Positions 13,168 to 64,000 of a DNA stretch of 64,000 bases are shown one piece after another (the first letter of the stretch is position 1; every line of letters starts with the position of its first letter). Where the stretch lies: the NCBI GenBank assembly GCA_973895155.1, contig OZ316899.1, positions 10,381,135-10,445,134 of the forward strand. Direction: 5' to 3'. Source of the stretch: Marsupella aquatica. Its lineage: Eukaryota > Plantae > Marchantiophyta. A program made the position numbers and the translations under genes. The notes beneath the pieces were generated by a model. That model saw nothing but the letters and a program-made list of their open reading frames with translations. It had not been told where the DNA came from and searched no databases.

Positions 13168-13171
13168 AAAA

Positions 13172-17834: not shown

Positions 17835-17839
17835 ACTAC

Positions 17840-34502: not shown

Positions 34503-34823
34503 GGGTATGGCACCGGTGACAGAAAACAGGAAAAACAGAAAAACAGGAAAAAAGTTACTGTTACGAGGAAAAATGACAATCAAAAAATATTTTCAAAAAA
34601 GTCACATTTTCCAAAAAACATTGAGAAAAAATAAATTTGGCTAGCTTTGGGCGCTAGCATTACCAGCGCCGGGCGCTGGCTAAAAAAATTAAAAATTCAG
34701 AAGAAAAAAACTTTTAATTCAAAAAAAATTACCACTCATTTTCTTGTTAACAGTTTCTATTTCCTGTTACCAGTTTATGTTTGCTGTTACCGTTTGCTGT
34801 TTGCTGTCGTTTGTAAATACCTC
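34503..34823. mobile_element. MITE (GGGTAT...ATACC ends), copy 1
   Basis: Long imperfect inverted arms; flanking direct repeat CTACATAT (34495-34502 and 34824-34831); related copy at 52917-53268. Confidence 0.8.
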
Positions 34824-34953
34824 CTACATATGGCCTTTGGCCACATTTTGTATTTGCACCACAACCAATATTATTTCATTTTTGCACACCCCTAGCCCAT
34901 TTTGTGTGTGTTCTCTTTGCAATATAACTTTCAATTGTTTGCTTTGTTTTTAG

Positions 34954-37900
34954 AATGTGCGACCCTCTCCAAATATGTTACCACAGAGATTGAGAGCAAC
35001 ATATTGAGAAATGGGTATGCCAGAAGAAGGACATGGATCAGAGTCACACTCCTCATCAAGTGCTAGTGGAAGCACTAACCCTGATGAAGAGGTACCTCGA
35101 ACGGATGAACAAGTAACTGATGAACAGGATAGAGCCATGGATGACTTTATGGTTGATTGGTTTGGTGCCGACAACCCTGGTGATGACCTTCCCAATGAAG
35201 GGCAGGTGCCCCCAATGATCCACGCCCAAGACATACCCCTCAGGGACAACGCCAAGGGGAAGAAGCAGAGGAACATACCCAAACACCTATCTATGAGGGT
35301 GCTCGTTTGAGTTGTCTTTAAGCCATCTTGGGGTTGATGAACCTACAGGCCAAACACAAGGCAAGCAATGCCTTGTTATCTGATATGTTTGCCTTATGTT
35401 ACCCACTGAGAATGTGTTGCCAGCAACTTGGAAGGAGGCAAAGAGTGTTCTCTCATCTATTGGCATGGAATATCATATTGTTCATGCATGTTTGAATGAT
35501 TGCATGTTATTTCATGGGGCCAATGCAAACATGACACAATGTACAACATGTGATGAACCTCGCTATGACGCCAACATGCTAACAAAGAAGGTGCCAAGGA
35601 AGGCTGTTCGTTGGTTTCCCATCATTCCTCGGTTGTTGCACATGTATCGGTGTTCTGACTTGGCAGAGTTGATGGTATGGCATAAGACTCATCGATCAGA
35701 GTCTGGTGTCATGCGGTTGCCAGTTGACTCCCCTGCTCACAAACATATTGAGGCAACATGGCCAGACTTTGCACATGATCCTCGTCATGTGAGGCTAGGA
35801 TTGGCATCTGATGGAGTTAGCCCTCATTCACTTGGAGGAAAGGGGCAACCTACATCAGTTTGGCCTGTGGTTGTCATGAATTATATCCTCCCACCATGGC
35901 TATCCATGAAGAAGGGGTTCCTTTTATTGTCTTTGATTATCCCAGGTCCAAAAAAGGTGAAGAACTTTGACACTTGGCACTATTGGTTGGAGAACTTAAA
36001 AAATTATGGGATGGAGTGTGGGCATATGATGGCAGGAAAATTACAAGAGGTTTTCCACGTGTCTTTCAATTGAGAGGGATCATTTGTTGGACAATGCATG
36101 ACTATCCTGGTAAGATGACTTCCATGCCATTTGCAACCCTTCAATAATGTGCAGTTCCTATTGTTGTTTCTCATGTGACAATCCTAACATAAAGTTTGCA
36201 TGGTTTGATTTCTTTTGTGTAAGTAGGGTTTGGTTTTGTCTCTGGATTGCAAACTGAGGGGTACAAAGCTTGCTTTACTTGTGGCCAAGCTTAGAGGACA
36301 TGGCCACATATTGTTTATATTGGGCATACAAAGTTTCTTCCCATGGGGCATGAGATGAGGTTTGACCCACTTCTATTCTCCTCCTTTGACATGCCATTTG
36401 GTGATGAGCGTGAAATTCCTAATGCAACAAGTTTTGCACATTGGAAGTCACTAGCTGATAGGGTAGCAGACCAAATGATTCCTTCACCTTTGATAGGACA
36501 GGTTTGACCAGGTGGGGTATACTAGCCACTTTGCCCTATTGGTCTGAGTTGAAGATCCGCCATCTCTTAGACCCCATGCACATAGAGGGAAATGTGAGGA
36601 AGGCTTTGATAAAGCATTTTTATGGGGAGAATGACACTAATTTTAGGGAGGCATGCGAGGAGATGGAAATGCGTCCAGATGTTTGGGTGACAACTGATCC
36701 TATCACAGGTGTGGAGAATTGTCCTTTTGCTCCTTGGGTGTTGAGTGTTGGCAAAAGACGTGAATTTTGGAACCGTATAGGAAAGATGCGGTTTCCTACA
36801 GGCTATGGTGCAAACCTTCGGAAAGCTTTTGGGATGAAAGACAATCACAAGTGGCCATGATATCTGAAGACACATGACTATCATTGCCTATTGCAGCATA
36901 TATTGCCAGTGGCAATTATAGGTATAGAGAGTGAAGAAGTGCAAGATGCCATCTGGTCATTGGGTTGTTTGTTGAGATGGATATGCTCAAAGGAGATATA
37001 TGTAGAAGAGATCCCTAGGATGGAGGTATTGGCAACTGAGGTGGTATGCAAGTTGGAGAAAGCCCTTCCTCCTTCCTTCTTTGATTGTCAGGTTCATTTA
37101 CTTGTGCATCTTGTGCGGGAGGTTGTCATTGCTGGTCCAGTGCATTGCAGATGGATGTATTGGCTTGAGCATTACATGGCGGTGTTGAAGGCTTATGTAC
37201 GTAACCTGCACGGTGGAGGGAAGCATAGCTACAGGATACTTGACAGCAGAGAGTATGTTTTATTGTAGTAACATCTTGGCCACCATTGATCCTACTTGTC
37301 CACGTACTTGGATGGAGGAAAGAGAAGAGGAGGAGGACCGTTTAACAGGTGCCACAAAAACACGCATGTTGACATCAACAGAGTGGTCACAGTTGACAAC
37401 ATTTATGTTGAGTAATAGTAATATCATGGAGAAATGGAGAGAGTTTTATGAAAATGCCAAGAGAACAAGTCAAAGAGCAAGAATTTTTCCTAAGATGCAT
37501 GAGTATATGAAGCAAAAGTTGCTTGAGTTGGATGACATGGTGACACAAGGAGGAGATGTGTCCCACTTTCCTACCATCATAGATGACGTTTGGACCATTG
37601 TTCATGGCCCTTTGAGAGTGGTGACATCCAAGACGGCTATGTGGACACAAGGGAGACACTTCAGGTCCACTAGTACCTAACCTTTCTTCCTCTATTAATT
37701 CACGTAGACCTTATTTTGATTAGTTATTTCTATTGTTTAAAAACGTTCTATTATCATTAATGACATCCATAACTATAATGTTGGCTTCTATATTTATGCC
37801 ATAGGCCATGTGGGTTTTGGCTATTTAGGGATGGGTTTCATATTTTGATGATTATTACATTAATGGTATCTTTTGTGTAATTAAAATTTGTGGGTTTTGT

Positions 37901-38390: not shown

Positions 38391-39255
38391 GGGACATATT
38401 TATATGCACTTGGGTCCAACCTAGACATTTGTTCATGTTATATTTGATTTGTTCATGTTTGGTGATATAAAAAAAAGTATTATCTATATTTATATTTGCC
38501 ATTCACTTTTGAATGAGTCATACTCATAACATATGTATTGTATTGTTTTATTGTGATCACTTGTGAATTTTACATGCAACTTTCTATCTAACCTCTGTTG
38601 CTCAATATAACTTTATTTCCTACTTATTCCATAATTTTCATTGTCACCCTTGTGTTTCCCTCCTCCGTGGTACGTCTATCCCTCCTCCTCCCTTCCTCTT
38701 TCTCCTCCCTCCTTCCTCTTCCATTGTACTCCCTCCCTTTTCCATCCTTCATTGTACCTCCCTCCATCCTCCCTCCTGCCCCATCCATATATTGGACCAT
38801 CCACCCTCTTCATTGTCTCACCTCACAATAATCTTAATTTTTAGTTTGCAAACAATTTGCAAAGCTCACAAAATCTCACAGGACTCGCAATTTCTATGAG
38901 GCTTCTCATTTCTCAATATTTCCATACTATACTATTCGCAAACTTGTGATGCAAAATCAATCACAAATTTCATATTCTCACCGTTTTGCAAATCTTCCAT
39001 CCTCCGACATTCTTAAACTTGTCAAACAACTACTATCGCAAAACATTTCAATCCAACCTTCTTTGCAAATATTTACATCAGTTAGTTTCGGAGTCGGCGA
39101 GCAATTTTGGCATCTTCAGAAGGCGCCTTTCCATTTGGCGCGTCTCGGTAAAACTTGCAAAATCACTTACTTTGCAATGTATTAGCGATATAATGCGCTT
39201 CAAGTACTATCTTTGCGATAGGGATAGAATTGCAAATTGCGATGCGGGTTGATTC

Positions 39256-39583
39256 TGTCACACCATTCTAGGTAGTGTTAGAGTGTATCATACTATCTAG
39301 ATCCGTATGTTTGGTATGTGTGCTATATGAGCCGATAAGGTTCCGTCAGGTTTGTGTGAGAGAGTACTTCTCACTTGTGAGGCACTGAAAGGTCATCTTT
39401 CAATGTTGAGCCTTGGAGAGAGAGGAGCTTGAGTGGCTATGGTGGCTGTGAGCTCCGCTTGTGTAACGTTGATTCCTTGAGTAGTGCAAGGTGCGTTGGC
39501 TTGACATACGTGTGTGATCGGATCGGTGCGGGATTGATGGGGTATTGTTGACCGGGATCGTTGTGCCGATTGTATTGAGATTA
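39256..39583 (+). repeat. Split direct repeat A1 of element D (328 bp)
   Basis: Matches 48441-48768 with about six substitutions by eye. Confidence 0.95.
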
Positions 39584-42500
39584 CATTGAAAGATCGCTCG
39601 AACTCTGCTGCTGTACGGACAGAGCTTCGATTGGAGGTTGTGTATTGGCGACGGTTTGTGGTAGTTCGAATCGATCGTGTTGTGTTGATTCGGATCTTAT
39701 TGTTGATATTGTGTTGGAAGATCTATTCTGCCAGGGAGCTATTGTTTAAGCTTTCGACAGTTCCCGAAGGGCTCTGAGATGTGTTGATCGAAGGGCTGAT
39801 TGACAGTAGAGGGATCTATGCCCGTGTTTGTAGATCTGTTGGACAGGGTCCGGACGGTGTAGTCGACCTTGATGCGATCTGTCCCGAGTTGCAATCTGTG
39901 ACAATAGCGATCGGATTTGATAAGGCCGGCTGTGGCACTACTGTTTTGATGAAGGAAACGGAGATCAAACTTTGAATGCTGCGTTTTGCGTCACTACTGT
40001 TTCCATTCGATCATGTGTATGTTGCCGTCGCCAAGCTGCGATTTTGCGTGAAGGGAACCGGCAGCCACAAAGTCAATGTTTTGTGAGGGAAATTGAGTCT
40101 GGATGTTGTGAGATTGAACTGCTATGTTTCCGTCGGACTGCTACTGCAATCTGATTCCGCGAAGGGAACCGAGAGGCAGAAGCTGGATGTTGCCGAATCC
40201 GAAACTCGATGGGCAGAACCTGAATGTTGCCGAATCCGAAATTAACTCGATCCGGCGTAGCGAAGCGTTGCGGGCATGAAGGGCTCACTCTTTGGCTCAT
40301 CTCGGCATTGCGGGCGTGAAGGGCTCATCTAGGCTTTGAGGCTTTGAGGCAACTCGTGGTTACTCGGGACGAGGGGCGTGAGGGCGGAGCAGGAGCGGGC
40401 CAACAAGCCAGCTTGCTGGTACGTGAGGAGTAGTTGCAAGTGCTGCCATTTTGGAGTGGCAGATTTGGTGCATAATGACAAGTGAGAGGTCACCCATCCC
40501 AAAGCTATTCCTCCTCTCATGCGCTTAACTAGCAAGTTTCTATGTGGTGCATTGTACATGCTTCCTTCCACATTTGATGTCCAAGGAATGAGGCCCTCGG
40601 GGTTTTATGCACTTTTGAATTCATCGAGATACTCTGTTTTAGCTAGTTTGCGATGGATTCTTGAATATTTGACGCGGGATTCTTGAGGCCTATTATGAAG
40701 GCCCTACATTGAACTATATACACATTATTTACATGTATTTCTGATTGATTGGTGTGGAGAGTTGTGGTAAATCCTCTTCTTGTTGTTGGATCCTCTCCAC
40801 ACATGCTTCCTGTTTATGCGCCATGTTAGTTTGGCGTGGGCGCTTGATTCTATAGGAGTGATCCGGGTTTGCAACCGGACATTCTAGTTGTGCTACGTAT
40901 TTCTCTCCTGGTGATGTTGGAGTGATGCCCAACACACCATGGTGAGTGCTTGTGTTGTTGACAGGGACAGATTGCCCTTAGGGTTAGCCTATAGATTAGG
41001 TTAGGTTGGTCACCACGGATTCTTCTGGCGCTGCTGGGTTACCCGATGGACGACGGACCGGTTTCACTCGGAATGGGGTGCAGTTTTGGCCAGCGACAGT
41101 GGTAGCAGTCAGCAGCACAGCTTCAGACAACGATTCTGACGAGGACTCTATGAGCAGTTCTCCTCGTCATCAGGTGATTGCACCTTTGTTGTGGGATATG
41201 GAAGAGATGTACGGGGCTACAAAGGGCCCACGACGATACTCTGGTGCAGTTGGCACGATTGATCTGGATGACTTCATCCAGGAGTTTGATACGTGGTGCA
41301 ATATGCAGACATTGCGTAACGCCACGTTGTTTACCCCTTTCATGGCATGGAAGGGATTATTTCAGCATTTGGAGGGGCCACCCATGGATGACTACCATGA
41401 GTTTTGGAAGGCTCATTTGGTTGAGATTGAGGCATGGAGGCAGCATTGGTCGCCTAATTACGTGTCCATCACCTATGGCACTAGTGCGGCTGCCCAACCC
41501 ATTGCCACAGCTGCTGCTGCTTCTTCTAGCAGCACTAGCCAGAGTGGCACACCATCCACCAGCAGCACTCCACCAGCATCCACCGCTACTCCTGCCGGTG
41601 TGATTGTGACAGGAACTGGAGTTGCGCCAGCATTTAACCCTGTGGTGGAATTCTTTGAGGTACTGAAGCAAAACTATCAGGGTGTGAGAACTGATAAGTT
41701 GAAGGGTCTTCAGGAGTTCCAACGCAAGACTGGAGAGAGCCTACGTGAGGCATACACACGTATGCGCAGATTGATCACTGTCACCAAGGGAGTGACAGAG
41801 GCTCAGGCAGTCTAGTTTTGGTATGCAATTCTGGACAGAGAATTGCGACGCAGAGTGAGAGATGTCACTCTGATTAGGGATGCAGATCCCACATTAGCAG
41901 TTGTTTTCACCCTTTCTGAGCGCATTGAGCTCAATATGGTGAATGAGAAGGTGGTGACTTCTGGATTTGCCAAGGAAGCACCAAAGGCTGCATCTACATC
42001 CACACCATAGCCTACTGCACGGAAGAGCCAGAGGGAGAAGCCTACTGCACGAGAGTCTACCAGCCAAAGACCTGTGCCCTCTTATGCTGGACAGCAGTGA
42101 GGATGTTGGACCTGTGGTGGGGATCATGCACAGAGATATTGTCCAGATCATAGAGGATCAGGGGGAGCATCAGCGCCTGATCAGCGACAGTGTGATCACT
42201 GTGGAGCTCCTGGACACACCAAGGATAGGTTTTTCTCACTCCACCCTGAGTTACGGAGAGGAGGATCCCGTACACATGATTAGGGAAGAGGAGGAGGAGG
42301 TAGAGGTGGTGGACGTGGTCGTGGCATGCCACATGCAGGGAGACAGGGAGGTGACGCTGCCCCTACTGTAACCATAGATCCAAAGGATGCTAAGATTGCT
42401 CAATTGGAGCAACAACTAGCTGCCATGGCTAGTTCCCAGGTGAGACCTAATTCTGGTGATGGGGCATCTACATCCTATGGACCTTCCACATCCCATGATC

Positions 42501-43864
42501 CTTCCACATCTTATGGAGCTGATGGAGACCTTGCCACCATGGGATTCATGTGTGGCACTGCACATATTGATGCATCAGCAGCTTTGACACGTGGGGCAGC
42601 CAAAGCTCTTGAGCCCCGAGGAGCAGTAGTGGAGCTAGATCCACAGAGGGGGGATGCACGTCGGCAGACAAAGCTTCCTCAGTCTTTTACATTGTCAGAG
42701 ACAGTTCAGACTGCCTCTATAAACCCGGTTCGGACAAACCCTGGCGTGGGTAAGTTGGCAGAATCAGGTAGTGATGCAGCAGGGATGACAGGTACCCTGC
42801 TGGGGGCGGCTACTACCATGGTACGCACCCCATTATTTTCAGCGACAGACATTCTGAACTTGGGAGTTGGTCCTGCAGAAGTGTTCAGATTGGCAGCTAC
42901 ACTCTGTGAGGACACTCCACTGGTTGCTTCCCATGCAGAAGCAACTTGCAGTGTTGATGTAGTGAAGACCATGCCACCTACTGCTACTAGTGAGACATGG
43001 CATGCAGCAACAGCGAGGTTGGTGGATTTACCAGCACGCCCTGCATTTGAGAGGACTAGGTTTAAACCTAGTGTTGTGTCATTGGATAATCGGAGTGGTA
43101 TCTTCTGATTAGGTGGGCCTTCTGGAGCAGTATACCAGCCAGAGAGAGTGTTACTGGATACTGGTGCTCAACCCTTGATGTTGGGGAAGTCTGCCATACG
43201 TGGATTGGGATTGCGTCCAGAGGATTTGGAGGATTGTCCCTTTCCCATTTAGACTTCATTGGGGGGACCTACACCTACACAGCATATCACCAGGAGACCA
43301 CTTGATTTGAGGATTCAGGAAGGTCATACCACATATAGCTCACAGATACAGGCGCGAGCTATTCTGACTAAGGCAGAGTCATATGATGTGTTGGTGGGAT
43401 GTACAGTGCTCTACCCCATGGGATTTATTCTTGATTTTTGGGAGGAATCAGTGTCATATAGACCTGATTGGCAGTCAGGAGATGCTCGATTGAGAAAATT
43501 GCCAGTGAGATTTAGTGGACCTGTGGGAGGCCCTAAATCCACACCATTGTCTTTGGCAGCATTCAGTGGTGTAATTGCTGGACCTGATGATTTGATTGAG
43601 GGTAATGCGCATGCAGCCGATGTTCCACCATTGGAGGAGTCTCATGAGGAGCACATCATGCGAGGATTACCTGTTGGCAGTGTTGTGCCACCAATGTGGG
43701 GCACTGCACAGGCCTTGCCACAGGCAGCAGCACGATTGGTACATGATGCACGGCGTCATGCTTTTACACCACAGTCAGGAGCAGAGCAGTCTCTTGCAGA
43801 TGGACCTGTGACTCTTTCACCATTGGATACCACTCCTATTGCTTGGCAATATCCACCGAAGGGT

Positions 43865-44806
43865 ATTTGTTTGTTGGATCTTTTTGGTGGGATTAGCACT
43901 GGATTGGCTGTTGTTCTTCAGGCAGGAATTCCTGTGCGTTGTTATTTGTATGTGGAGACAGATGAGACAACACGGAGGGTCTCATTGCGACATGTGGCTA
44001 TGTTGGTGGATAGATATCCACAGTTGCTGCCAGTGGATGCTGTTCGTGGTTATCAGCATGCACTACCTGCTGATATTTCATTGTTGGGGGCGGATCATCT
44101 ACATCGTGTTGGCCCCATTGATTTGGTGATTGCTGGTTGGCCATGTCAGGGCCAATCTAGAGCTGGCATTGGGCATGGACTTCATGATCCACGCTCTGCA
44201 TTGTTTTGGGAGATGTTACGGGTGCTGCATCATCTCCAGCTACATCAGACACAGTCTCCAGCATACATTTTGGAGAATGTGTCATTGTTAGGTGATGATC
44301 GTAGTCGGATTGTTGCCAGTGTTCACCAGGTGAGGTCTTGGATTGGACCTGCTGTGTTATTGGATGCTGCACGTGTGGGTTCTCGTGCACGTCGTCCACG
44401 CTTGTGGTGGACTAATTTGATCCCATGTGAGGTGCTGAAGCGCGCATTTGACAGCATTCCACGCTCACCAGCCTTAGTGGTGGATGATATTTTGGATCCA
44501 GGGCGTCGTGCACAGGGTGTGACCCAACCTGATAGACCTCCATTGGCAATGGTCAATGCAGTTGGGCGCCCACGTTGTGCATTACCCACTCTTGTAAGCC
44601 ACTCTACTTCATATGCATTCAGAGCAGGTGGCCCTGGACTTGTGTGGGACATAGCTCTCCAGCAGTTAGTGGAGCCTACTGCTGATGAGAGAGAGCGTGC
44701 TATGGGATTTTTGACTGGCACCACTGCAGTTGCCTCTGTGTTAGAGGGTTTGTGGCGCCAGGTTCTTGGTCAAGCAATGGACTTGAATTGTTTGACTTGG
44801 ATTATC
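43865..44806 (+). CDS. C5 DNA cytosine methyltransferase domain (DNMT3-like) within the polyprotein
   Basis: Motif I LLDLFGGISTG, II YVETD, IV DLVIAGWPCQGQSRAG, VI YILENV, VIII RARRPRLWWTN, IX ERERAMGF, X RQVLGQAM; no stop inside the domain. Confidence 0.93.
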
Positions 44807-47800
44807 AGCTTGGGAGTAGCTGAATAGTTGCGGATGCGCTCTGCTGGAATTACTGATTGTCCCTTGGTGAGCTTGCGGTCCACTGAGACAGTATTGACCA
44901 CAACTGGGGGCGAGCAGACAGTCAATGGACCTATGGCAGGATTGGCCAAGGCTGGACAGATTGTTGAGCAGGAAGGGACTGCTCAATCTACTGCTAAATA
45001 GCAATCATCGGCTATCTCTTCTACCCTACAAAGAGATATTAGGGATTTGGTGGAGAGTTGGGAACCACAGCTTGGCCCTAAGTTAACAGGGGAGGAGAGA
45101 CGTCGCATGCATCGATTCCTGAAGAGTTATTGGAATTGTTTTGCATTCAGCATGAAGAATTTGGGGACATTGAAGGGCCCTGGTATTCAGATTGAATTGG
45201 CTAGTGATGCGCCAATCTTTCGTAGACCATACCGCTATAGTGACATGGAGAGAGCTCTGATTCAAAGCATAACTCAAGATTTGTTGGAGGCTGGATTGGT
45301 GGAGATTTCATATGGGGAGTATGCATCTGCCACAGTGATGCCAGCCAAGAAGGATGTGCATGGCAATTACACAGATAGGCGCATGTGTGGTGATTACAGA
45401 CCTATTAATCGCCAGACAAAATCTGATCGATATGCCATGCCCACACCTGAGGAGATCTTTGATGCTGTGGGGCATGCAAAGGTTTTGAGTTCATTGGATC
45501 TGAGGGCAGGATACCATCAGCTTCCAATTAGGCATGCTGACAGGTCCAAGACAGCATTCTGGGGGATTGATTCTTATGGCAAAGATCGTTTGTATCAATG
45601 GTTATTCTTACCATTTGGGTTGAAGAATGCACCAGTTGAGTTCCAGAGAGTCATGGATCGAATCCTTGCAGGTTTGGATTTTGTCAGATCTTATATTGAT
45701 GATATTTTGGTCTATTCTTCTACTGTGGAAGAACATCAGCAGCACTTGCAGATTGTGTTGGAGAGATTGAGAGCACATGGGTTGAAGCTCCATCCTGGCA
45801 AGTGTAAGTTCTTCCAAGACCAGATTGAGTATTTGGGCCACACTATATACCCAGGGGGATTGGGTGTACAGCAGACTAAAGTGGAGGCCATTACACAGAT
45901 TCCTCATCCTACTGATGTGAGCAGAGTTCGTGCATTCTTGGGATTGGCGAGCTACTATAGGAGGTATGTTAAAGGATTTAGCCAGCTTGCTAAACCTTTA
46001 ACAATACTCACTAAGTTGGATCAGAAATGGACTTGGGGTGATGACCAAGAGCATGCCTTTCAGGAGTTGAAGCAAAGGTTGGCATCATCCCCTATTTTGA
46101 GAAGACCCATTTCAGGCAGACCATTTCAGCTACACACTGATTGGAGTGGAGTAGGACTTGGAGCAGTGCTGACTCAGAAGGATGATGAGGGGAATGAGTT
46201 TGTTGTGGCTTATGCCAGTAGATCAAACAATGCAGCAGAGGCTAAGTATAGCTCTTATGAGGGAGAGTGTTTGGCAGCAGTGTGGGCTGTTGCACACTTT
46301 CGTTGCTACTTGTTTGATAACCCCTTTACCTTGATCACTGATCATCAGCCTCTTAAGTGGTTAATGGAGTCTGACAAGCTTACAGGGAAGCTTGCACGAT
46401 GGGCATTGTTGTTACAGGAGTATGATTTCCAGGTGGTGCATAGGCCTGGAAAAGTGAACTTGGATGCAGATGGATTAAGCCGCAATCCATGTACCAGTCA
46501 GCAAGATGAGACTGGATCTAGATGGCATGATGAGTCAGATAAGGAGATGGTGCCAGGATGGCATGCATCTGCCTTTCTTTGTTGGGTGCCAACATACAGT
46601 GGATTTGTGGACTCTACCTCATTGGATGGAGTGGATGATGAGTCTTCAGATGTGGATGTTGGTGAGGTAACTTCTGGACAACAAGATATTCACAATGATG
46701 TGAGAGTGTTGGAATATCTGCGCAGTGGTTCTATTGTTGACAGTGTTGATGCCAAGGAACGTGACAGGGTTCTACAGAGAGCCAAGAGATTTCGATGGGA
46801 GGGAAACCATCTTTTGAGAGTACTGCATGATGGTAGGATGTTGGTGGTACCAAAACCATCACAACGAGTACATTTGGTGTGACATGCGCACGAGGAGTTG
46901 GGTCACTTTGGTGTGAAGCGCACTTACAGCTTGCTGCAGACACAGTATTGGTGGCGTGGTATGCACACTCATGTCCAACAGTTGATAGCTAAGTGTGTGG
47001 TATGTGATAGAGTGAGAGCATCATTTAATGCTCCCACTCCCCAGTTGCACCCGTTGCCGATCATGGGTTTGGGATATCGTTGGAGTTTGGATTTTGCTGG
47101 TCCATTACCTCTTACCCAACGTCATAATCAGTATGTTTTGGTCATGGTGGAGCACTTCTCCAAGTGGATTGAGCTAGTGGTGTTGCCAGATAAAGCCAGT
47201 GGAGGAGTTGCTGCTACATTTTTGGATCGTGTACTCAGTCATTTTGGAGCACCAGCTGAGGTGTTGACTGATCAGGGAACTGAGTTCCGTGGAGAGTTTG
47301 AGAGTTTGTGTGAACAAGCTCTGATTGATCATCGTACTACCTCTCGTGATCATCCTGAGGCAGATGGATTAGCTGAGAGAGTTGTGCAAACTGTGAAGAG
47401 AGGATTGCGTAAGTATGGCTTGCAGGTTGGTCATCTGGGAGATTGGGATCTCCAGCTACCTTGGTTAGCTATGGGCTACCGTTTCAGTCGGCAAGCATCA
47501 CTTGCATCCTTCTCACCTTACTTTTTGCTCTATGGTAGAGAGCCAGATTTGCCAACAGCTATTCGTCGTGATGCTGCATCAGTTGTGAACTTAGATGATC
47601 CTGATGTTTGGGTCAAGGTGTGTTCAGAGAGAGCACGGGTATTTCAGCGAGTGATGCCCATGGCTTTTGACAACCTTGCCATTGCCCAACATCGTGATAC
47701 TTTGAGGTATGCCACTATTCGTGGAGGAGGTTACCGTGCAAGCATTCGACGATTTCATCCTGGTGATTATGTTTATTTGCAGCAGACAGCACCCACCACA

Positions 47801-47986
47801 CTTGATGTGACCGCAGGCCGGACAATCTTATGTGTGCGTGAAGTGTTGCCTTCTGGTGTCCTGATGTTGGAGGGACGCGATGGTATGGTTTGGAAGGATC
47901 ATGTGCGCAACTGTGCACCATGTCACCTTCCCAACATTGATGGTACAGTAGATCCAAGCTTGGCACATGTTCATGCTGGCTTGAAA

Positions 47987-48127
47987 TGTATGTTGTGTGG
48001 ATCTGCTCAGGGAGCAGCTACTATGTTGATTTGTGATCAGTGTTCTAGAGGATGGCACATGTCATGTTTGACACCACCATTGCAGGTGATTCCTAGTGGA
48101 TCATGGTTGTGTCCTCAGTGTCGGTGA
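47987..48127 (+). CDS. PHD finger at the integrase C-terminus
   Basis: C4HC3 pattern CMLC...LICDQCSRGWHMSCLTPPL...WLCPQC. Confidence 0.93.
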   Translation, partial: CMLCGSAQGAATMLICDQCSRGWHMSCLTPPLQVIPSGSWLCPQCR

Positions 48128-48300
48128 AGCCGACTAGTTATCATTTGTGTTCTCTTGGCAGATATGGATTGCAGGTAGGTGATCGATGGGGCTCACTTGC
48201 ACCCGGCCTCCTGATCTTCACACCTAAAAAGGTGTATATCAACCTTGTAGAACTCATGGCTAGCTAGAGTTAAGGGACCTTACTCCCAGCTAGGGGGGCG

Positions 48301-48905
48301 ATTGTGGGTTTTGGACATGTGTGGACATGAGTTCCACTTGTATTCCATTCTCTTGTGTTTGTGATGTGGCAGTGTGACTATGTCTGGATGTATGTGACAA
48401 GCGATGTATGTTGTGTAGCGATGTGTATGCGCACGACAGCTGTCACACCATTCTAGGTAGTGTTAGAGTGTATCGTACTATCTAGATCCGTATGTTTGGT
48501 ATGTGTGCTATATGAGCCGATAAGGTTCCGTCAGGTTTGTGTGAGAGGGTACTTCTCACTTGTGAGGCATTGAAAGGTCATCTTTCAATGTTGAGCCTTG
48601 GAGAGAGAGGAGCTTGAGTGGCTATGGTGGCTGTGAGCTCCGCTTGTGTAACGTGGATTCCTTGAGTAGTGCAAGGTGCGTTGGCTTGACATACGTGTGT
48701 GATCGGATCGGTGCAGGATCGATGGGGTATTGTTGACCGGGATCGTTGTGCCGATTGTATTGAGATTATTGTGGGTTTTGGACATGTGTGGACATGAGTT
48801 CCACTTGTATTCCATTCTCTTGTGTTTGTGATGTGGCAGTGTGACTATGTCTGGATGTATGTGACAAGCGATGTATGTTGTGTAGCGATGTGTATGCGCA
48901 CGACA
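48301..48905 (+). repeat. 3' repeat block B1-GC-A2-B2 of element D
   Basis: B (138 bp) occurs twice, identical by eye, flanking A2; PPT-like TAGGGGGGCG at 48291-48300. Confidence 0.95.
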
Positions 48906-48993
48906 ATTCGCAAATTATGCCAAGCATCGCCCATCGGAAATACAAGAGCGTCAACAAAAATATCTTTGCAAAAGTGTTAAATATGTTGTAGTG

Positions 48994-49875
48994 CTTCCTT
49001 GGGAGACTGAACGCGGCTTGGCTGCTATTCGACGGGATTTGGCAAGCGGGCAAGTTAACACCTGCAAACCTCGAGAATCCATGGTGCCCCCAGACCCATC
49101 TGAGCTCAAGAGGACGTAGCCCTCCTTGAGATCTTTCCAATGCACCCAAGAAGTCCTCCAACGGACTTCCCGTTGGGAAGATATGGTCGTTTTTGTTTGG
49201 CGCTTTTCTTCAGTGTCGCGACCGCCACGGCTCACGACTTCGGCTCGCCCTTGGCCCCCAGGGAGACACCACTCCCCTCATATATGCTTCTGGAGACCTG
49301 CCACCCCCGGACAAACTTTGGTCCCTAAACATTTGGCCTCCAACCCGGATCCTATCGCGCATACTGCGCGCGCCACCAACTGGCAATGTCCATAACTTTC
49401 TCGATAGGCGTCCACAAGCGGAGTGCCTTAGCCCGTTGTGATCAGGCCAACCCAGTGTTTATGCTTAGGCCCTCAGGTCTCATCGCCGCTCAGGGTCCCC
49501 GATTGGTCAAACCCGGATCGAGCCGTAACTCACACCCCAAGCGTTCGTTGCCCATGGCGTCAACTCGATTGGCCTTGGGCCCAAGAGGAGCCCACACTCA
49601 AGCCCTCAGAACTCAAAGTCCGTCCAAATTCCCTGATGGTCGACCTTAAGTTTGGCCCCTTTTCCCTTGACTCGACCAGCTCTCATCTAGCCTAAGTCCT
49701 TAGTGTGTGTCACCAGCTTGACTTCTTGCCTTTGCTAGTGCCACGTGTATTGCCCACAAGTCTCCCCATGCTAAGTCCTCCCCGGATGGCCTATCCGGGC
49801 CTGGACCATAAGGAAGCTCGGCGTCAAAATCAACAACGCCGGAGCTAAGTGTTAAGGTAGTCAAGTTCCGTGACT
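48994..49875 (-). repeat. 5' portion of an A-family LTR, inverted
   Basis: Reverse complement matches 22189-~23018; cut by the CACTA end and inserted in D2 gag. Confidence 0.9.
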
Positions 49876-52800
49876 GTGTAGATGCAACCTTTGGTGCTCC
49901 TTGGCAAATCCAGAAGTCACAACTTTCTCATTCACCATATTGAGCACAATTATGCGCTCAAAAAGTGTAAAAACAATTGCCAATGTGGGATCTGCATCCC
50001 TAAGACAGTAGAGTGACACCTCTTACTCAGCGTCACAATTCTCTGTCCAAAATTTTATACCAAAATTGGATTGCCTGGGCCTTTGTCACTCCCTTGGTGA
50101 CAATGATCAATCTTCACACATGGGTGTATGCCTCACGTAGACTCTCTTCAGTCACGTTGAAAATCTGGGAAACCCTTCAACTGATTAGTCCACACACCTT
50201 GATAGTTTTGCTTCAATACTTCAAAGAACTCCACCACAAGATTAAATGTTGGCGCAACTCTCGGCCCTACCATAATTGCATCGGTAGGAGTAGCGTTGGA
50301 TGCTAGTGGAGTGCTACTAGTGGATGGTGTGCCACTCTAATTAGTGCTGCTAGAAGAAGCAGCAGTTGTGGCAATGGGTTGGGCAACTGCAATAGTGCCA
50401 TAGATGATGGACACATAATTAGGCGACCAATGTTGTCTTCATGCCTCAATCTCAACCAATTAAGATTTTCAAAACTCATGGTAGTCATCCATGAATGGCC
50501 CCTCCAAATGCTGAAACAATCCCTTCCATGCCATGAAAGATGTGAACAATGTGGCATTATGCAATGTCTGCATATTGCACCACGTATCAAACTCCTGGAT
50601 AAAATTATCCAAATCAATTGTGCCAACTGCACCAGAGTATCTTCTTGGGCCTTTTGTAGCCCCATACATCTCTTCCATGTCCTACAACAAAGGTGCAATC
50701 ACTCAGGGGGTTGACTATAAAAAATTTAGAAACCATGTGCAATCCAAAATAGGTATTTTTCATAGAAATTAGCTAAATTTTTAAAAAGCATAGAAAGCAA
50801 AAGAAGGTATTAGAAACCCATATTTGTAGAATATTCTCTAATATATACATTTTAAAAAGTAAAATAGGTCATTAATATCGAAACTAGAGAATATTTTTAG
50901 AATATTCCCGTTATAAAATAGGTGTGTTTATATTAGGCTAGGATCGCACGTGGTACACCAAAATATACACGAAGTTAATCCCCCGAGTGCAATCACTCAA
51001 TGACAAGGAGAACTAGTTACAGAGTCCTCGTCAAAATCACTGTTTGAAGCTATGTTGTTGATTGCTACCAATGTTGTTGGCCAAAATTGCACCCCACTTT
51101 GAGTGAAACCGGTCCGTCATCCATTGGGTAGCCCCGCAGTACCAAAAGAATCTGTGATGACCAATCACAAAATTATAGCCATCAATCTAATCGATGTGCT
51201 AACCCTAATTGGGCAATTTGTCCTTGCTAGCACCACAAGCACTCACCATGGTGTGTTGGGCATCACTCCAACATCACCATGAGAGAAATATATAGCACAT
51301 CTAGAGTGTCTGGTTGCAAACCCAAATCAATCCTATGGAATCAAGCGCCCACACAAAACTAACATGGCCCATAGACAAGAAGCATGTGTGGAGAGAATCC
51401 AACAACAAGAATGGATAAACAACAACTCTCCACACCAAGAGTGATCACAAATCGATCAAACAATGTTCATAATGTTCAATGTAGGACCTTCATAATAGGC
51501 CTCACGGATCCAATGTCAATTATCCAAGAATCCACCGCAAATGAGTTCAAATTGAGTATTTAAATGGATTTAGAAGTGCATAAAACCCCGAGGGCCTCAT
51601 TTCTTGGACACCAAGCGTGGAAGGAAACATGTACAATATATGCACCACATAAGAACTAGCTACTTCAGTGCATGAGCAAAATAATAGCTTTGGGATAGGT
51701 GACCTCTCACTTGTCATTATGTACCAAATCTGACACACAAAACTGTCAACACTTGCAAATTCTCCTCATGTACCTAGCAAGTTGGCTTGTTGGCCCGCTC
51801 GACCCTGCTCCACCCTCACGCCCCTCATCCCAAATTGCCTCAAAGCCTTGAAACGCCTAGATGAGCCAAAGAGCAACGCTTTGCTACGCCAGGTTTGGCA
51901 ACATTGGCCCTCGTTTCCTTCACGGAAATTGCAAATTGGCGTTCGACAACATTCAAACTTTGGGTTTGGCAGTAGTATCACGATTCGGCAACTTTGGCCC
52001 TTGTTTCCTTCACAAAAATTGCAGATCGGCTTTGGCCCCTTCACAAAACTTTGGGTGTGGCAGCAGCAACCAATTAAGCAACTTTGACCCTCATTTCCTT
52101 CATGGAAATGACAGTACGGCAACACGCAGCCAATTCCTTGTCAAAACAACAACATTCCGGTTTTGTTTCCTTCAAAAAATAGTTGCTGCTTCACCTATGC
52201 CTGACCAATGCCTCCCCGCAATCATGGCAGTAGTCGGCCATTGGATCTAAAGTCTCATAGATCAACTTCCATTGTCCGCCATCTATTCAATGATTTGTAA
52301 ACATTTGTGAAGTGCTTTTCTTCCTGAAAAAACAACATTCAAAGTCAGCTACTCATTCAACAACAACATCATGTGCCCATGATCACCGACATCTTCATAG
52401 CACATCAAGTACCAGCAATTCCAACCAATCAACAATGCAAGCTACTATGAACCCCAACAAAACAATCACCCGACACCAACAAGCAATTTGAGCTACCATG
52501 AATCGTTGAAAACTCAATCGATTGAACTTAATTATGTCGGTACAGTCCGCACGACATAATTCTTTCCCCTCACTTCTTTGAGGTAATCTCAATAGAATCA
52601 AACCATGATCAATGCCAATCAAACATCTGATCCCGTCCAAAATGATCACATACAGATATTGAGCCAAGCGCACCTCACACTTCAAGGAATCCTTGTTACG
52701 TACGCACGAAACTGGCCAGCCACACCATAGCCGCCAAAGCTCATGCTCAAAGGCTCAACATCAAAGAAGTGAGGCCTTTGAGCGACAACAAAGGGATAAC

Positions 52801-52908
52801 TATCCCTAAAAATGTGAACTAAACCCTATCGGCTCATATAGCACACATACAAAACATATAAACCTAGAAAACATGATATACTCTAATGCTACCTAGAATG
52901 GTGTGACA
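49876..52908 (-). mobile_element. D2: older, decayed 5' part of a second D-family element
   Basis: Reverse complement starts TGTCACACCATTCTAGGTAG like 39256; contains a diverged 5' UTR and gag (MEEMYGATKGPRRYSGAVGTIDLD). Confidence 0.92.
50702..50987. mobile_element. MITE with 8-bp TSD (hAT-like)
   Basis: TIRs CTCAGGGGGTTGACT...AGTTAATCCCCCGAG; TSD TGCAATCA; absent from the homologous position in D. Confidence 0.85.
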
Positions 52909-52916
52909 TTCCAAAA

Positions 52917-53268
52917 GGGTATGGCACGCGTGACAGTAAACAGGAAACAGGTTTATTGGTACCAGCAAAAAATTTCCTGTTACCAGCAAAAAGTTACTGT
53001 TACCAAGAAAAATAACCATGTCAAAATATTTTCTAAAAAGTCACATTTTCCAAAAAATAATTAAATTACACATTTTTTGGCTAGCTTTGGGCGCTAGCAT
53101 TACCAGCGTCGAGCGCTAGCAACAAAAATTAAATTTTTTGAAAAAAACCACTTTTTTTCTCAAAAAAAAAAGGTAAAAAAAATGTAAAAAAAATTATCAC
53201 CCATTTTCCTGTTACAAGTTTCTGTTTTCTGTTACTGTTTGTTGTTTCCTATCGTTTGTAAATACCCC
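52917..53268. mobile_element. MITE (GGGTAT...ATACCCC), copy 2
   Basis: Homologous to 34503-34823; flanking repeat TTCCAAAA at 52909-52916 and 53269-53276. Confidence 0.82.
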
Positions 53269-54010
53269 TTCCAAAACTTGGATTGTATTTGCCAATAGAG
53301 TTTAGTGGCAGGGATGTTATTAGATCTATGTGTTGCCCTTAGCCTAGGGAAGGTCTCCTCGTAGAAATGACATTCTACAAATCTTGCTTTAAAGACATCT
53401 GCTGTGGTTGGTTCCAAGTATCTGATGATAGAGTTGGAATGAAAGCCAATGTAGATGCCACTCTACCTTGGGGTCCCATCTTGGTTTGCTTGGGGCCCAT
53501 CATTGGCAGCAACACTTGGCAGCCAAACGTCCTCAGGTGGGATATGGTCGGGGGGTTCCCAAATGCGAGGTGGTGAGGTGAGTTGGAGTTAAAGGCTTAT
53601 GGTCAGTAGTTGATCAGTGTGGTTGCATGGAGTATGGCGTGGCCTCATGCAGAGGTGGGAAGGTTTGCCTACATCAATAGGGGCCAGACTATGATTTGTA
53701 GCCCCTTTTGATGAGGGATTCAACAATCCCATTTTGGAAATGAACTTGAGCCACAGGGTATTGTATCTCTATTCCCACCGACGGATAAAAGTCTTTGAAA
53801 GTTTTAGATGTAAACTCTCTGGCATTGTCAACTCAAAGGATTCTAATTGGAAAGTTGGGCTTTCAACTTTAGTATGTGTGCGAGGATGCGGGGAAAATCC
53901 ATGTTGTGTGTGGATAAGAGTGAGACTTGTGACCATTTCAAAGATGCACAAATCATGGCAAGGAATAAACGGAAAGGGCCACTCTCAGGGTTAATTGGGT
54001 TGCATACATC
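53269..54010 (-). pseudogene. Decayed copia integrase fragment related to element E
   Basis: EPTTADVFKARFVECHFYEETFP and the TKMGPQ-type region parallel the E polyprotein. Confidence 0.8.
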
Positions 54011-55081: not shown

Positions 55082-55599
55082 TATTCAGAGACAAGAAGAT
55101 GAATAAGAACATACACCAACAACTGGAGGTTCCCTCCAACTTCCATTACCTTATAGTCCCTAAGGACTCGATCTATTACATGCGGTTAGGTTGTTACTAA
55201 CAACCTAAGCTTCGGTTAGTTAGGACTAACTAACTCTACTAACATGACTCGGGTTAGTGTTAACTTCATATTACAACACTCCCCCTTGGTTACTTGAATA
55301 GCATAATAAAGTAACCATATTGAGAGTAATACTAACCCTAGGTGGATTATTTTGGTACCCATAAGGAGAGTGTGGTCTCATCAAAACCCCCCTTCTTTCT
55401 TCTGGGGGAAAGAGTACCACCACTCTGTACATGGCATGGGTCCATATTGAAATGTAGACGTATAGTAGAAATGTGATTCGATGTATGCATTCTTGATAGG
55501 CGAAGGTGAACATGTTAATGCATCGTAAGTGGTAATGGTTGCGGTGTCGTCTATAATCGTGTAGAAAATGGAGTTTAGGGTTTAATCGGATCGTAATGG

Positions 55600-58500
55600 T
55601 CATATCTGCTCTGTGTGCAGTGTGGATAGGCTTCTCATGCCGATGCCGTATGAATGTTCCTTATGCAAAAGCGGTGGTAATGGTTTTGTGAATAAGTCTG
55701 CTCGGTTGTCTCGGCTGGGTATCCATTCGACCTGAATTTGATCACCGTGCTGTTCATGTGTATAGAAGAATTTCGGAGAGATGTGTTTAATTCTGTCACC
55801 TTTTATGAAGCCATGAGCGATTTGGTCAACACAGGGGCGGTTGTCCTCGTAAATAGTAGTAGGCGCTTTAGATTGTTGGCGACCAGTGTGCTTGTGGATG
55901 TGATGGAGCATGCTTCGTAACCATACACATTCTCGGCAGGCTTCATACAAAGCTATGATTTCCGCATGATTAGAAGAGGTTGTGGTGAGTGTTTGCTTGG
56001 AGCTGCGCCACGAAATGGCGGTGCCACCTTGAAGAAAAACGTACCCTGTTTGTGATTTGGCATCTCCAGGGTCAGAGAGGTAGCCCGCATCTGCAAATCC
56101 AATCAATTTGTCTTCAGCATCTTTCGGAAAAAATAGACCAACGTCGACTGTGCCCTTCAGGTATCGAAAAATCCTCTTCAGCCCATTCCAATGGCGGATT
56201 GTTGGCTGAGAACTATGTCTGGCCAAGAGATTTACAGCAAAAGAGATGTCGGGACGAGTCTGATTAGCCAAATACATAAGGGCGCCAATGGCAGAGAGGT
56301 AGGGTTTGTCGGATCCAAGAAGAGGTTCTGTTTCGCCGCGCCTTCTGAACATATCTTTGTTAGTGTCTAAGGAGCGAAGCTCCATTGGTGTGCTGACAGG
56401 GTGGGCTGTTTGCATATTGAACTGTCGTAAAATCTTCTCGGTGTAGGTAGATTGACTAATCAGAATACCATTGTGCAGGTAGTCGAACTGAATGCCGAGG
56501 CAGAAGTTAGGTGGACCAAGGTCCCTCATTTCGAATGTGCCCTTCAGAATACGGAGTGTATGGGCTGTGAGTTGTGGTGTCCCGAATATATTCAGGTCAT
56601 CAACATAGATGGCTATTATGACGAATTCTTCTGCCTCAGATTTCAGGAATAGACAGGGCGCTAGCTCATCATTTATAAATCCCAAAGCTAACATTTCAGC
56701 TTGGAATCGTTTATACCACATCCGGCCACTTTGCTTTAGGCCATACATTGAACGCAAGATTTGTACGGCATATTCCATTTGAGGTCTCTTGCTGCGTGCT
56801 GGAGGCACTTGATGTGTATTATGTGGTGAGTATAGCCCACCAGAGTGGACAGTAGGTCCAGCATTTGTAATTTGCGCAATTAAGGGTTCAGTAGGAACCA
56901 TCTGGATCATGCCAGATCGTAGTGATTGGACTGATATGCCGGATTTCTCCCCCTGAATGTGGAAGGACAATCTATTGAGAAGCTCTGGAGGAGCTTTCAT
57001 GTAAATTTTGGTATCTAGCATGCCATACAGGTAAGCTGTTATTACATCCAGGATGTGCATGACTAGCTTATGTAGTAAAGCAAACGCTATCATGTAGCGG
57101 TATGTAATTGAGTCCATCACTGGAGAATGTGTCAGGTCATAGTCTTGACCTGGGATTTGGGTGTAGCCCTTCGCCACTAGTCTGGCCTTATATCTAACTA
57201 CTTCGCCCTTGGCATTTCTCTTGCGGACGAAGATGAATCTGTAGCCTGTTAGATGGCTGTGAGTAGGAGCTGAAGTGATCGGTCCGAAAACTTGGCGTTT
57301 GATCAGCGAATCAAGTTCAGAGTTAATAGCCGCTTCCCATTGGGGCCAGTCTGGGCGAGATTGACATTCTGTTACTGTTAATGGGTCTGGAGTATCATTA
57401 GTTATCTCTTTTGATATCATATATGCAAATGCATCATCTATGGTAGTGGTTTCTCGTTTCCAGATTTGGCCTGAATGCATATATTGGATGGCTATTTCGT
57501 CATTGTCATTAACTAAAGTTGGTTGAGGTCCAGGGGGTGCAGGTGTGGGACTTGGTATCGTAGGTACAATAGGTGTGGTCCGGCATTGTCTGGGTTGGCT
57601 ATCTTTCGAGCCGAGTGGTCTGCCCCTTTTTGCCCTGGGGAGGGCTTCGGTAGCTAGTCGAGTGGGTTGGATCCGTGCTGGTGCATTGGCAGCGGGTGTT
57701 AAGGATTGAGTGACATTTGCAGCATCATTAAAGGCGTCTGGGAGTTTCTCTAACATTTGTTGAAGGTGGAGGATTTTCTGTACTTCTGCTTCGGTTTGGA
57801 CTGTCCGTGGATCATGCTGGAAGGAGGGTTTTAACTGCCATTGTAAGTCCGGTGTATAGACTGGAGTCTGGTTCTCCATTAATTTGGGGAAATCATCTTC
57901 AATAAAATCACAATCAAGGAACCGAGCCTTGAATAGATCTGCTGTAGATGGTTCTAAATACCGAATAATTGATGGTGAGTCGAATCCTACATAAATCCCC
58001 TGTTGTCTCTGTGGACCCATCTTGGTGCGTTTGGGTCCCAAAATGGGGACCAGGACTTTGCACCCGAAGATGCGAAGGTGAGAGACATTAGGTGGGATTC
58101 CGAACAATAAATGGTGTGGGGTATACTGATTATAGGCAGATGGTCTGTATCGGATGAGGGAGGAGGCGTGAATAATGGCATGACCCCATGCTGATATAGG
58201 TAAATTGGTCTGTAGCAGTAAAGGTCTGGCTATCATCTGTAGTCGCTTGATTAAGGATTCAGCTATTCCATTCTGGAAGTGTACATGGGGTACAGGATAC
58301 TGAACATCAATCCCTGCAGTTTCGCAGTATGTGTCGAATGTCCGGGATGTGAACTCACCGGCATTATCGACTCGAAGGGTGCAGATTGGATGATCTGGAA
58401 ATTGTGATCTGAGTTTCAGTATGTTGGACAGTATCCGAGAAAATACAAGATTTCTGGTTGATAGCAAGGAGACTTGGGACCATTTGGAGGAAGCATCGAT

Positions 58501-60237: not shown

Positions 60238-60557
60238 TGCCTCTATCCAGGGTAGTCTATGAATGTGAACTGTTGGAAAATCAATGTCGAATGTTCAGAA
60301 TGCTATAAATGTCAGATTTAGTGACCTTGAGCATTTTCGTGTGGAGTTCGTGGATGGATGACTGTGGCGCTCTTCCTTCGTAAAAGTGAATGTGGGCGAT
60401 TTGATGGAATGCAAAGTCTCGCTGTAGGAATAATCGTTGATCAATTGGGCGTCGCTTCACAAAGTTCGGAAGAAAAAAAAATTGCGAAGATGAGAGAGGA
60501 TGAGTCGTGGGTAGTGCGTCAGTGAAAAAAAAAAATTCTGTGCTCAGCTTTGGCAGC

Positions 60558-60571
60558 TCGTGCTGATAACG
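60558..60571 (-). promoter_or_regulatory. Half-tRNA-type PBS of element E (tRNA-Ile anticodon arm)
   Basis: Minus strand CGTTATCAGCACGA abuts the 5' LTR; no TGG-type PBS present. Confidence 0.7.
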
Positions 60572-61108
60572 TATTCAGAGACAAGAAGATGAATAAGAAC
60601 ATACACCAACAACTGGAGGTTCCCTCCAACTTCCATTACCTTATAGTCCCTAAGGACTCGATCTATTACATGCGGTTAGGTTGTTACTAACAACCTAAGC
60701 TTCGGTTAGTTAGGACTAACTAACTCTACTAACATGACTCGGGTTAGTGTTAACTTCATATTACAACACATTTGGCTTAAAAAGTGTACATTTAAGTGCA
60801 TTTGGTCTAGAAAGTGTAGCTTTGAGTGCAACAAAGTGTACATTTGGCCTAAAAAGTGTACCAACTCTTATTATAATCATTTAAAAGAAAGGAATGAATA
60901 GAAAAATATTTTTAATTATGCAAAAAAAGCAAACATTCATATTCATAACGATCAAAAGTTTAGAAAATGAGGAGATAGTATAACTAACACTCAATGGCAT
61001 GGTCTCACATTAAAACTATTAAAATAGTAAATAACTAGTAGGTACTTGTTACTATCTAAGTAACTATCTATTTAATAATTATTATAGCTTCGCAAGTAAC
61101 AACTAAGT

Positions 61109-63382: not shown

Positions 63383-64000
63383 GGAGCCCTGTTTCCATGG
63401 AACCCAATTTTGCAGCCCTCCACATATCTCCCTTTGTAGTCATCATACTCTGCAACTGTGTGTGATATTGCTCAAATCAACCAGAATTCGGTCCCGTAAG
63501 GAATAAGGAAAGCGTTTTACTCCGGTTTTATGGTATTTGAAATCTAAAAGTGATTTCTTTACTGGTTCTTCTCTCAGAATCCTAAAATGATTCTTCCGTA
63601 AACTCCTTAATCAACAAATTCATAAGGTCTTACTTTTTATCAATAGGTAATCGGATTTTCATGTATCCTGGACTTCCATATACTCAAAAGAGATCGGCTT
63701 TACATCCAATGACTTACTACAATTCTCTTTTCCCTAGATATCAAAGTTTCACTCTTAAAAATCCATGAGTTTGAAATAAGTTTGATGTTTTCAATGCACA
63801 ATGTGGTACATTTCCTTTTGATTTAATCTTCCCTCCTAAGCCCAAGATTGGCATGAGAGAAAGACCCAAAATGATCAAAGATTAAGTTTGCAAGGAAAAG
63901 ACATAAACATTTGCTTGGGAGTCCAAATGTAGGGGGCTCCCTCATAACATGGGAGAAACCAAAGGGTTTTCTCCTAAGTTGAGAAATCTATTCCTATCTA

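Follow-up and report, generated by a model that had tools for sequence, protein, structure and literature searches.

A DNMT3-like cytosine methyltransferase in Ty3/gypsy retrotransposons of bryophytes and green algae, placed before a likely readthrough stop in the bryophyte elements

What is a cytosine methyltransferase domain doing between the protease and the reverse transcriptase of a plant retrotransposon? The question is raised by a stretch of 64,000 nucleotides from contig OZ316899.1 of Marsupella aquatica (hereafter the window; positions are counted from its first letter), in which 39256-48905 is a decayed copy of a Ty3/gypsy element (Table 1). The element has the Gag-PR-RT-RH-IN order, the DDE integrase, the TG…CA ends and a target-site duplication (TSD) within the 4-5 bp of gypsy elements, and it carries in addition a DNMT3-like C5 cytosine methyltransferase domain (DNMT).

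Table 1. Features of the DNMT-bearing element in the window.
Feature	Position	Strand	Remarks
Ty3/gypsy element, whole	39256..48905	+	9650 bp, TG…CA termini; empty-site joint 39251->48906 (runs X1, X5)
Left 4-bp TSD, ATTC	39252..39255	+	
Right 4-bp TSD, ATTC	48906..48909	+	the 4 letters fit either side of the empty-site joint in X1
Repeat A1	39256..39583	+	98.2% identity to A2; 6 differences/328 bp
ORF1, Gag-PR-DNMT	41198..45001	+	start Met inferred by comparison with Marchantia homologs; this copy has 7 internal stops
Two Gag zinc-knuckle-like Cys/His motifs, the second degenerate	42104..42232	+	read from translation; no Pfam match
Aspartic protease DTG motif	43157..43165	+	read from translation; homologs have PF13650/PF13975
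DNMT3-like C5 cytosine methyltransferase domain, stop-free	43865..44812	+	
Conserved in-frame stop, TAG CAA TCA (CAR-YYA context)	44999..45007	+	likely programmed readthrough, judged from sequence
Reverse transcriptase (RVT_1) + RNase H	45371..46423	+	Pfam
Integrase, H2C2 zinc finger + DDE core	46883..47356	+	Pfam; stop at 46880 in this copy
PHD finger, integrase C-terminus	47987..48121	+	PF00628, E 7.5e-11
Polypurine-tract-like run immediately 5' of B1	48292..48301	+	kept in related loci
Repeat B1	48301..48438	+	100% identical to B2; CA end
Palindromic internal end-to-end junction GACA-GC-TGTC	48435..48444	+	2-nt spacer
Repeat A2	48441..48768	+	
Repeat B2 = element 3' end	48768..48905	+	

The two whole terminal LTRs expected of an LTR retrotransposon are absent; instead, the direct repeats are split in the pattern A…B-A-B, with A1 at the left end and B1-A2-B2 at the right. 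The empty site is present in contigs of two of the four runs compared. The full A…B-A-B pattern with 4-bp TSDs also occurs in three related loci (L048, L057, L058), and the 2-nt junction spacer is kept in all seven close-subfamily loci examined (these three with L001, L018, L019 and L053). In the distant loci L052 and L055 the B repeat is present and the junction is not readable as the same pattern. Retroviral integrase removes 2 nt from the ends during 3' processing; because the spacer matches this, we infer that a circle or concatemer is cut at the B1/A2 junction. A TGG-type tRNA primer site was found directly 3' of A1 neither in the window nor in related loci, and folding of the B1/A2 junction, the sequence behind A1 and the polypurine tract gave no stable hairpin (z –0.2 to 0.4). 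Split repeats and a CA-NN-TG junction in an integrase element are a mechanistic oddity. Split direct repeats would also fit a DIRS/Ngaro element, but the protease motif and the rve integrase, with no tyrosine recombinase, led us to reject this class. An assembly chimaera was rejected on the basis of 80 loci, kept of 144 confirmed, most of them with identical domain order, and a domesticated host DNMT3 gene on that of the repeats and retroelement domains.

The same window holds a second copy of the DNMT family on the minus strand (49877-52908), which has an A-type start, leader and Gag (73-86% identity), ends before the protease and is also CpG-poor. A young Ty3/gypsy element at 2277-17834 (ORFs on the minus strand) has 4.67-kb direct repeats (99.7%) holding long ORFs of 1160 aa with no Pfam match (3209-6688 and 14096-17575), and its Gag (10112-13105) and Pol (6939-10202) are open. 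The Copia element at 55082-60769 is a very recent insertion, given its identical 198-bp LTRs and open 1564-aa frame (55603-60294, minus strand). A second Gypsy Pol at 17778-21634 is frameshifted. Scattered copies of another LTR-like repeat lie at 2-929, 22181-23621 and 48993-49881, one of them adjoining the right flank of the DNMT element. Remains of a CACTA-type transposase (PF02992, DUF4218) occupy 34549-37677, and 18 kb from them, at 52988-53273, is a related terminal-like repeat. There is also a DUF7869 ORF at 62069-63439 (minus strand).

Gag, PR, DNMT, RT, RNase H, integrase and the C-terminal PHD finger are all read in a single frame (41000-48127); the remaining two frames contain 104 and 180 stops over 40900-48200. 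The frame contains nine internal stops, none of them in 43865-44812, so this copy is dead, and eight of the nine look like decay. The preliminary description had placed the DNMT in one retrotransposon polyprotein, between protease and RT. The common frame with Gag, PR, RT and IN and the order of domains hold up; the unbroken polyprotein does not, given the nine stops and the family-wide presence of the one at 44999, and the domain closes ORF1 rather than being a one-per-RT part of Pol.

This stop deserves a closer look. The CAR-YYA context after a stop directs readthrough in TMV (PMC2194720), and it follows only one of the nine stops of the window, that at 44999. Among close loci with the ~342-nt DNMT-RT linker, counted here with duplicates, a stop followed by CAA stands at the same site in 42 of 45 (32 TAG, 10 TAA); the other three miss this pattern, which does not by itself demonstrate a sense codon there. 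In the distant subfamily (11 loci) the stop, mostly TAA, is present in ten, followed by CAR-YYA in seven, and one locus has a sense codon. Of 1006 other stops, only 24 precede CAA. The stop and CAA, often within CAR-YYA, are thus shared by three subfamilies (about 55-65% alike), and this family-wide conservation excludes decay as the origin of all nine stops. At 44825 the stop is specific to this copy (in host runs, about 97% of the depth differs); no variant at 44999-45001 is found among the host-run variants listed. Both Logan relatives compared, P0001 (DNMT 86% identical) and P0209, terminate at the same residue as the window ORF1, and five of six long Marchantia ORF1s (1278-1281 aa), their ends judged from proteins and not DNA, end at one common point, the sixth ending inside the domain. 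The shared ORF1 end is 79 aa past the DNMT in P0003.

Given the family-wide stop, the DNMT is not simply inside a continuous polyprotein; together with the same-point ORF1 ends, the stop places the DNMT at the close of ORF1 in this clade, so RT and IN likely need readthrough. A readthrough stop that sets the DNMT:RT ratio would be a further mechanistic oddity. In many relatives DNMT and RT are not separated by a stop and lie in continuous PR-MT-RT proteins; Gag-level DNMT expression is therefore not family-wide. A stem 3' of the stop is a weak lead (z –1.4, –1.0 and –2.4 for the three sequences folded; two-sided change in 4 of 31 pairs).

The preliminary description had read C5 methyltransferase motifs in order and without a stop in 43865-44806 and had noted their resemblance to DNMT3; both observations are confirmed. 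The domain matches PF00145 (E 1.1e-10, 41.9 bits, cut-off 22), and its motifs follow the canonical, non-DRM order: I (Phe, 43883), II (Glu, 43955), IV (Pro-Cys, 44141-44146), VI (ENV, 44273), VIII (Arg, 44393 and 44399), IX (44687) and X (44753-44779). In a sequence search of the PDB the top 29 of the best 50 matches are DNMT3A/B/C (best E 2.9e-11), above HaeIII (9e-5) and DRM, and a 21-sequence profile gives the same ranking (DNMT3A 4e-18, HhaI 1e-9, DRM2 1e-5). An AlphaFold model of the domain (pLDDT 92) superimposes on DNMT3A with Z 29.1 (rmsd 2.6 A over 272 residues) and on HhaI with Z 23.7 (VIA; Foldseek agrees). The domain is DNMT3-like: by sequence and by predicted fold its closest solved relatives are DNMT3 enzymes. 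Of 247 relatives that are near full length, 244 keep the catalytic Cys, all keep the Glu of ENV, and 245 keep each of the two motif VIII Arg. The window copy retains all of these and deviates at two positions that are near-invariant in the family, 44390 (motif VIII) and 44753 (motif X). Motif IV reads Glu-Cys rather than Pro-Cys in 130 of the 247, mostly those with the DNMT after RNase H.

Comparison of the window with 46 non-redundant close loci gave dN 0.28 and median dS 1.71 for the DNMT (dN/dS about 0.16, with dS near saturation), alongside about 0.13 for Gag, 0.08 for RT and 0.29 for the PR-DNMT linker; among decayed close copies the ratio is 0.57 for DNMT versus 0.44 for RT. The substitution pattern indicates that the DNMT domain is under purifying selection. 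In run X1 the summed depth over DNMT equals that over PR and RT, and the one DNMT-skipping joint among the 15 of 310 joints listed has depth 296 versus about 250,000; all runs compared consist of contigs, in which depth is not copy number. The preliminary description had considered that the domain might be absent from other copies, evolve neutrally or have lost its catalytic residues; we found it present across the host copies, constrained, and with the residues in place.

The preliminary description had named no precedent in land plants. Named homologs occur in Marchantia, Calypogeia and Sphagnum (47-75% identity), and, among algae, in Closterium, Scenedesmus, Monoraphidium, Haematococcus, Pleodorina and a set labelled Tetstr1, which we take to be Tetraselmis. 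No fern, lycophyte or seed-plant name appears among the matches listed. At E ≤ 1e-30 there are at least 233 clusters (50% identity). In 284 proteins the DNMT lies before RT (36), follows PR in a protein without RT (55), lies after RT (119), precedes the integrase in a protein without RT (24), stands alone (49) or is lacking (1); in chlorophyte relatives it is mostly between RNase H and integrase. When relatives were selected by RT, 81 of 120 had the DNMT; 16 of the 39 without it are unrelated animal or Chara Gypsy elements and most others begin at RT, leaving a few related Pol proteins without DNMT (P0368, P0371). P0371 is a PR-RT-RH-PHD-IN polyprotein with no C5 methyltransferase and a precomputed match to PF05869, presumably the Dam-type adenine methyltransferase family; judged by this match, it is possibly a Gypsy element with a different methylase. 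Some post-RT-type elements have a G-patch between DNMT and integrase (P0124, P0136, P0338). At one locus, two DNMT-bearing subfamilies are nested head to head in opposite orientation (L054, L062, L064, L074, L078-L080).

In a quick-search RT tree of 120 rows, a branch with support 84 has the post-RT architecture on one of its sides; the window is sister to Marchantia and two Sphagnum-like loci (SH-aLRT 94). The DNMT tree (113 rows) splits the two architectures with support 99. RT and DNMT patristic distances are correlated (Mantel rho 0.74, a value reached in 0 of 500 permutations), with 46 of 110 splits shared. Since the rows were picked by DNMT likeness, kin share labels and the trees are unrooted, they support long joint inheritance rather than a dated or rooted origin; with this proviso the agreement of the trees points to one ancient capture. 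The element DNMTs found are at least 33% alike over the full domain, above any DNMT3 in the PDB (20-28%) or any viral match. A scan of viral contigs gave 3 relatives among 52 candidates (27-29% identity), and phage clusters head the Atlas list; these viral-contig and phage enzymes are as close in identity as animal DNMT3.

We also found a pronounced CpG deficit. At silent sites of the element C precedes G 13 times and T precedes G 375 times, versus 198 and 384 in six DNMT-less retroelement ORFs (difference P 3e-35), the DNMT-less elements inside the window being the only control. Silent-site CpG o/e is 0.07-0.12 in the element versus 0.55-0.74 in the DNMT-less Gypsy/Copia ORFs of the window; it is 0.38 in close loci and 0.15 in distant ones. 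The DNMT-less neighbours are not eroded, which speaks for action in cis. Host methylation contributes too, as CH contexts show some depletion as well (odds ratio 0.56). As A1 and A2 have diverged so little, most of the CpG loss is probably older than this insertion. The first kilobase of the element keeps its CpG (o/e about 1.0), contrary to what would be expected if the whole cDNA were methylated uniformly; the contrast is slight in four full Sphagnum-like loci (5' region 0.57-0.72 versus body 0.53-0.59).

Overall, we lean towards the reading that these elements form a Ty3/gypsy family of plants and green algae with a DNMT at the end of the Gag frame, before a likely leaky stop, the enzyme being made in Gag-like amounts and likely methylating CG in the element's own new cDNA. 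Most ribosomes would probably halt after the DNMT, a minority reading through to yield RT-RH-IN-PHD. Gag-PR-DNMT may well enter the particle, where the protease would free the DNMT at high local concentration. On balance, the freed enzyme would then methylate CG in double-stranded cDNA or in the integration complex. The chances are about even that both ends are templated by the B-GC-A junction inside the element, and that integrase then cuts the resulting circle or concatemer at a 2-nt stagger, leaving CA-3' ends; such a cut would account for the TG…CA termini and the 4-bp TSD. The integrase is perhaps guided by the PHD finger when the new copy is inserted. A bolder thought, which we hold with some reserve, is that a new copy with CG methylation in its body and a CG-rich 5' end might mimic an active plant gene or evade host surveillance.

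Several other readings compete with parts of this one. In Ogre and foamy-type elements Pol is reached by splicing or from a separate transcript, and the stop at 44999 could be bypassed likewise, the DNMT still being a product of the Gag ORF or being spliced out of a Pol mRNA. The TAG does end in AG, and Sphagnum-like loci have a T-rich run before it that resembles a 3' splice site; the window lacks such a run, however, and shares no post-stop Met with the loci. The 342-nt DNMT-RT linker is in frame with a single stop, and CAA, often within CAR-YYA, follows that stop in all three subfamilies, the distant one with mostly TAA; both observations speak against splicing. We regard this route as unlikely, while noting, from Tca2, that local signals by themselves may not be what carries ribosomes past a gag-pol stop (PMC2194720). 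It is also conceivable that an active enzyme works mainly in trans, on host chromatin or existing copies, limiting the element or reshaping the host methylome, rather than on cDNA. Output at the level of Gag would, by our reckoning, far exceed the need of one cDNA, and a spared 5' end with an eroded body fits methylation of integrated, transcribed copies; against this, the DNMT-less retroelements next to it have escaped CpG erosion, and we consider action in trans quite unlikely. Very unlikely, in our judgement, is that the domain is retained for some role that is non-catalytic or RNA-directed (binding of nucleic acid inside the particle, RNA m5C), with the CpG loss due to host MET1/DNMT3. Such a role would agree with the Klebsormidium enzyme, for which no DNA activity was seen (PMC5890265), with the Glu that replaces Pro before the catalytic Cys in over half of the relatives and with the different CpG footprints of the subfamilies, but not with near-invariant Cys, ENV Glu and motif VIII Arg across lineages 33-70% alike, or with a fold closest to the DNA-acting DNMT3.

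The history of the family leaves room for another account, in which algae passed the elements horizontally to land plants, or two captures gave rise to the two DNMT positions, instead of one vertical capture. Both trees separate the two positions, the bryophyte elements fall apart from those of Closterium, vascular-plant names (fern, lycophyte, seed plant) do not figure among the matches listed, and related methyltransferases turn up in viral contigs and at the head of the Atlas list in phage clusters. Yet all element DNMTs resemble each other more than any of them resembles a PDB DNMT3 or viral enzyme, the RT and DNMT trees are congruent within and between groups, and the pre-RT position is also found in the chlorophyte-labelled set Tetstr1. 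We hold transfer or double capture to be possible but doubtful. At its widest, the picture of a single vertical capture would be an unrecognised Gypsy lineage as old as green plants, with one DNMT3-type capture and a later shift within the polyprotein; in land plants the DNMT would sit on the abundant side of a leaky stop, particles would be packed with an enzyme writing a gene-body-like CG pattern on new copies, and copies would arise with no tRNA primer and be cut out by integrase at the palindromic junction of a circle. Taken as a whole, this picture is speculative, and we advance it only tentatively.

With a range from chlorophytes to bryophytes, what was seen as an event specific to Klebsormidium would become an ancient lineage. 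The role of retrotransposon DNMTs was left open by de Mendoza et al., who had only non-model algae for testing it (PMC5890265). In Marchantia polymorpha several Gag-PR-DNMT ORFs are annotated that have every motif and look intact (Mp_4g09160, Mp_5g06330, Mp_5g06860, Mp_Vg00370), so the role becomes testable in a genetic model with methylation mutants; transposons are derepressed in its Mpmet mutants. DNMT counts taken from bryophyte or algal gene sets can also be too high because of such ORFs.

The closest known system is KnitGypsy-Dnmt3 of Klebsormidium nitens, which combines Gypsy domains, a Dnmt3 domain and DIRS-type repeats and was described as an event of the K. nitens lineage (de Mendoza et al. 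2018, PMC5890265; here and below, papers are cited from the portions available to us). The precedents in Klebsormidium and dinoflagellates named in the preliminary description are thus real, and full novelty cannot be claimed, as the architectural kind is the same. The range is much wider than published, as far as searched. KnitGypsy-Dnmt3 and the elements described here share the Gypsy set, a non-permuted Dnmt3-type domain, A…B-A-B repeats, catalytic residues and purifying selection (Ka/Ks <0.2 for KnitGypsy-Dnmt3). Its DNMT shares one ORF with RT and RNase H (PMC5890265, peer-review file), an uninterrupted arrangement that we see in many algal-type relatives, whereas the bryophyte clade has the conserved stop between. 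Occurrence in bryophytes, apparently high copy number, a PHD finger on the integrase and chlorophyte relatives with a second DNMT position also set the present elements apart. The PHD finger is absent from the main text of PMC5890265 and Marchantia from the three of its supplements searched; no protein named K. nitens is among our matches listed. In yeast KnitGypsy-Dnmt3 showed no methylation activity, a result its authors call inconclusive.

In the available portions of the literature, the range of retroelement DNMTs is given only as 'streptophytes and dinoflagellates' (PMC12344493), and such elements in bryophytes or chlorophytes are not described in those of PMC6453930, PMC6673714, PMC9940879, bioRxiv 363937, PMC6317226 (whose main text mentions neither PHD nor methyltransferase), PMC12885004 and PMC11982613; PMC8310308 gave no match on these elements. 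The land-plant range, the readthrough stop and the second DNMT position are unreported in the openly accessible literature searched, in which KnitGypsy is named in one paper.

Other systems share single traits. SymbioDIRS-Dnmt3 and SymbioLINE-Dnmt are also retroelement-borne C5 methyltransferases with congruent RT and DNMT trees (PMC5890265), the SymbioDIRS enzymes having de novo CG activity in yeast and the SymbioLINE-Dnmt family being CG-depleted; they belong to recombinase-type DIRS or LINE elements of dinoflagellates, whereas a DDE-integrase Ty3/gypsy element is the carrier here. Motif order, short target-recognition region and fold are those of animal DNMT3A/B/C and, presumably, of the host DNMT3 of non-flowering plants (PpDNMT3a/b, PMC6453930). 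A C-terminal DUF3444 has no Pfam match in the element, and, unlike animal DNMT3 (20-28% identity), the domain is intronless and lies in a retroelement ORF. Gypsy-7a_cRei and REM1 of Chlamydomonas are also green-lineage Ty3/gypsy elements with a PHD finger, listed before INT in the Gypsy-7a legend, and no methyltransferase is named for them in the text available (PMC9940879). Finally, the CAR-YYA stop of the window resembles the in-frame stops of SIRE1, Tca2, MuLV and TMV (PMC2194720). Unlike those, it parts Gag-PR-DNMT from RT and leaves an epigenetic enzyme on the abundant side.
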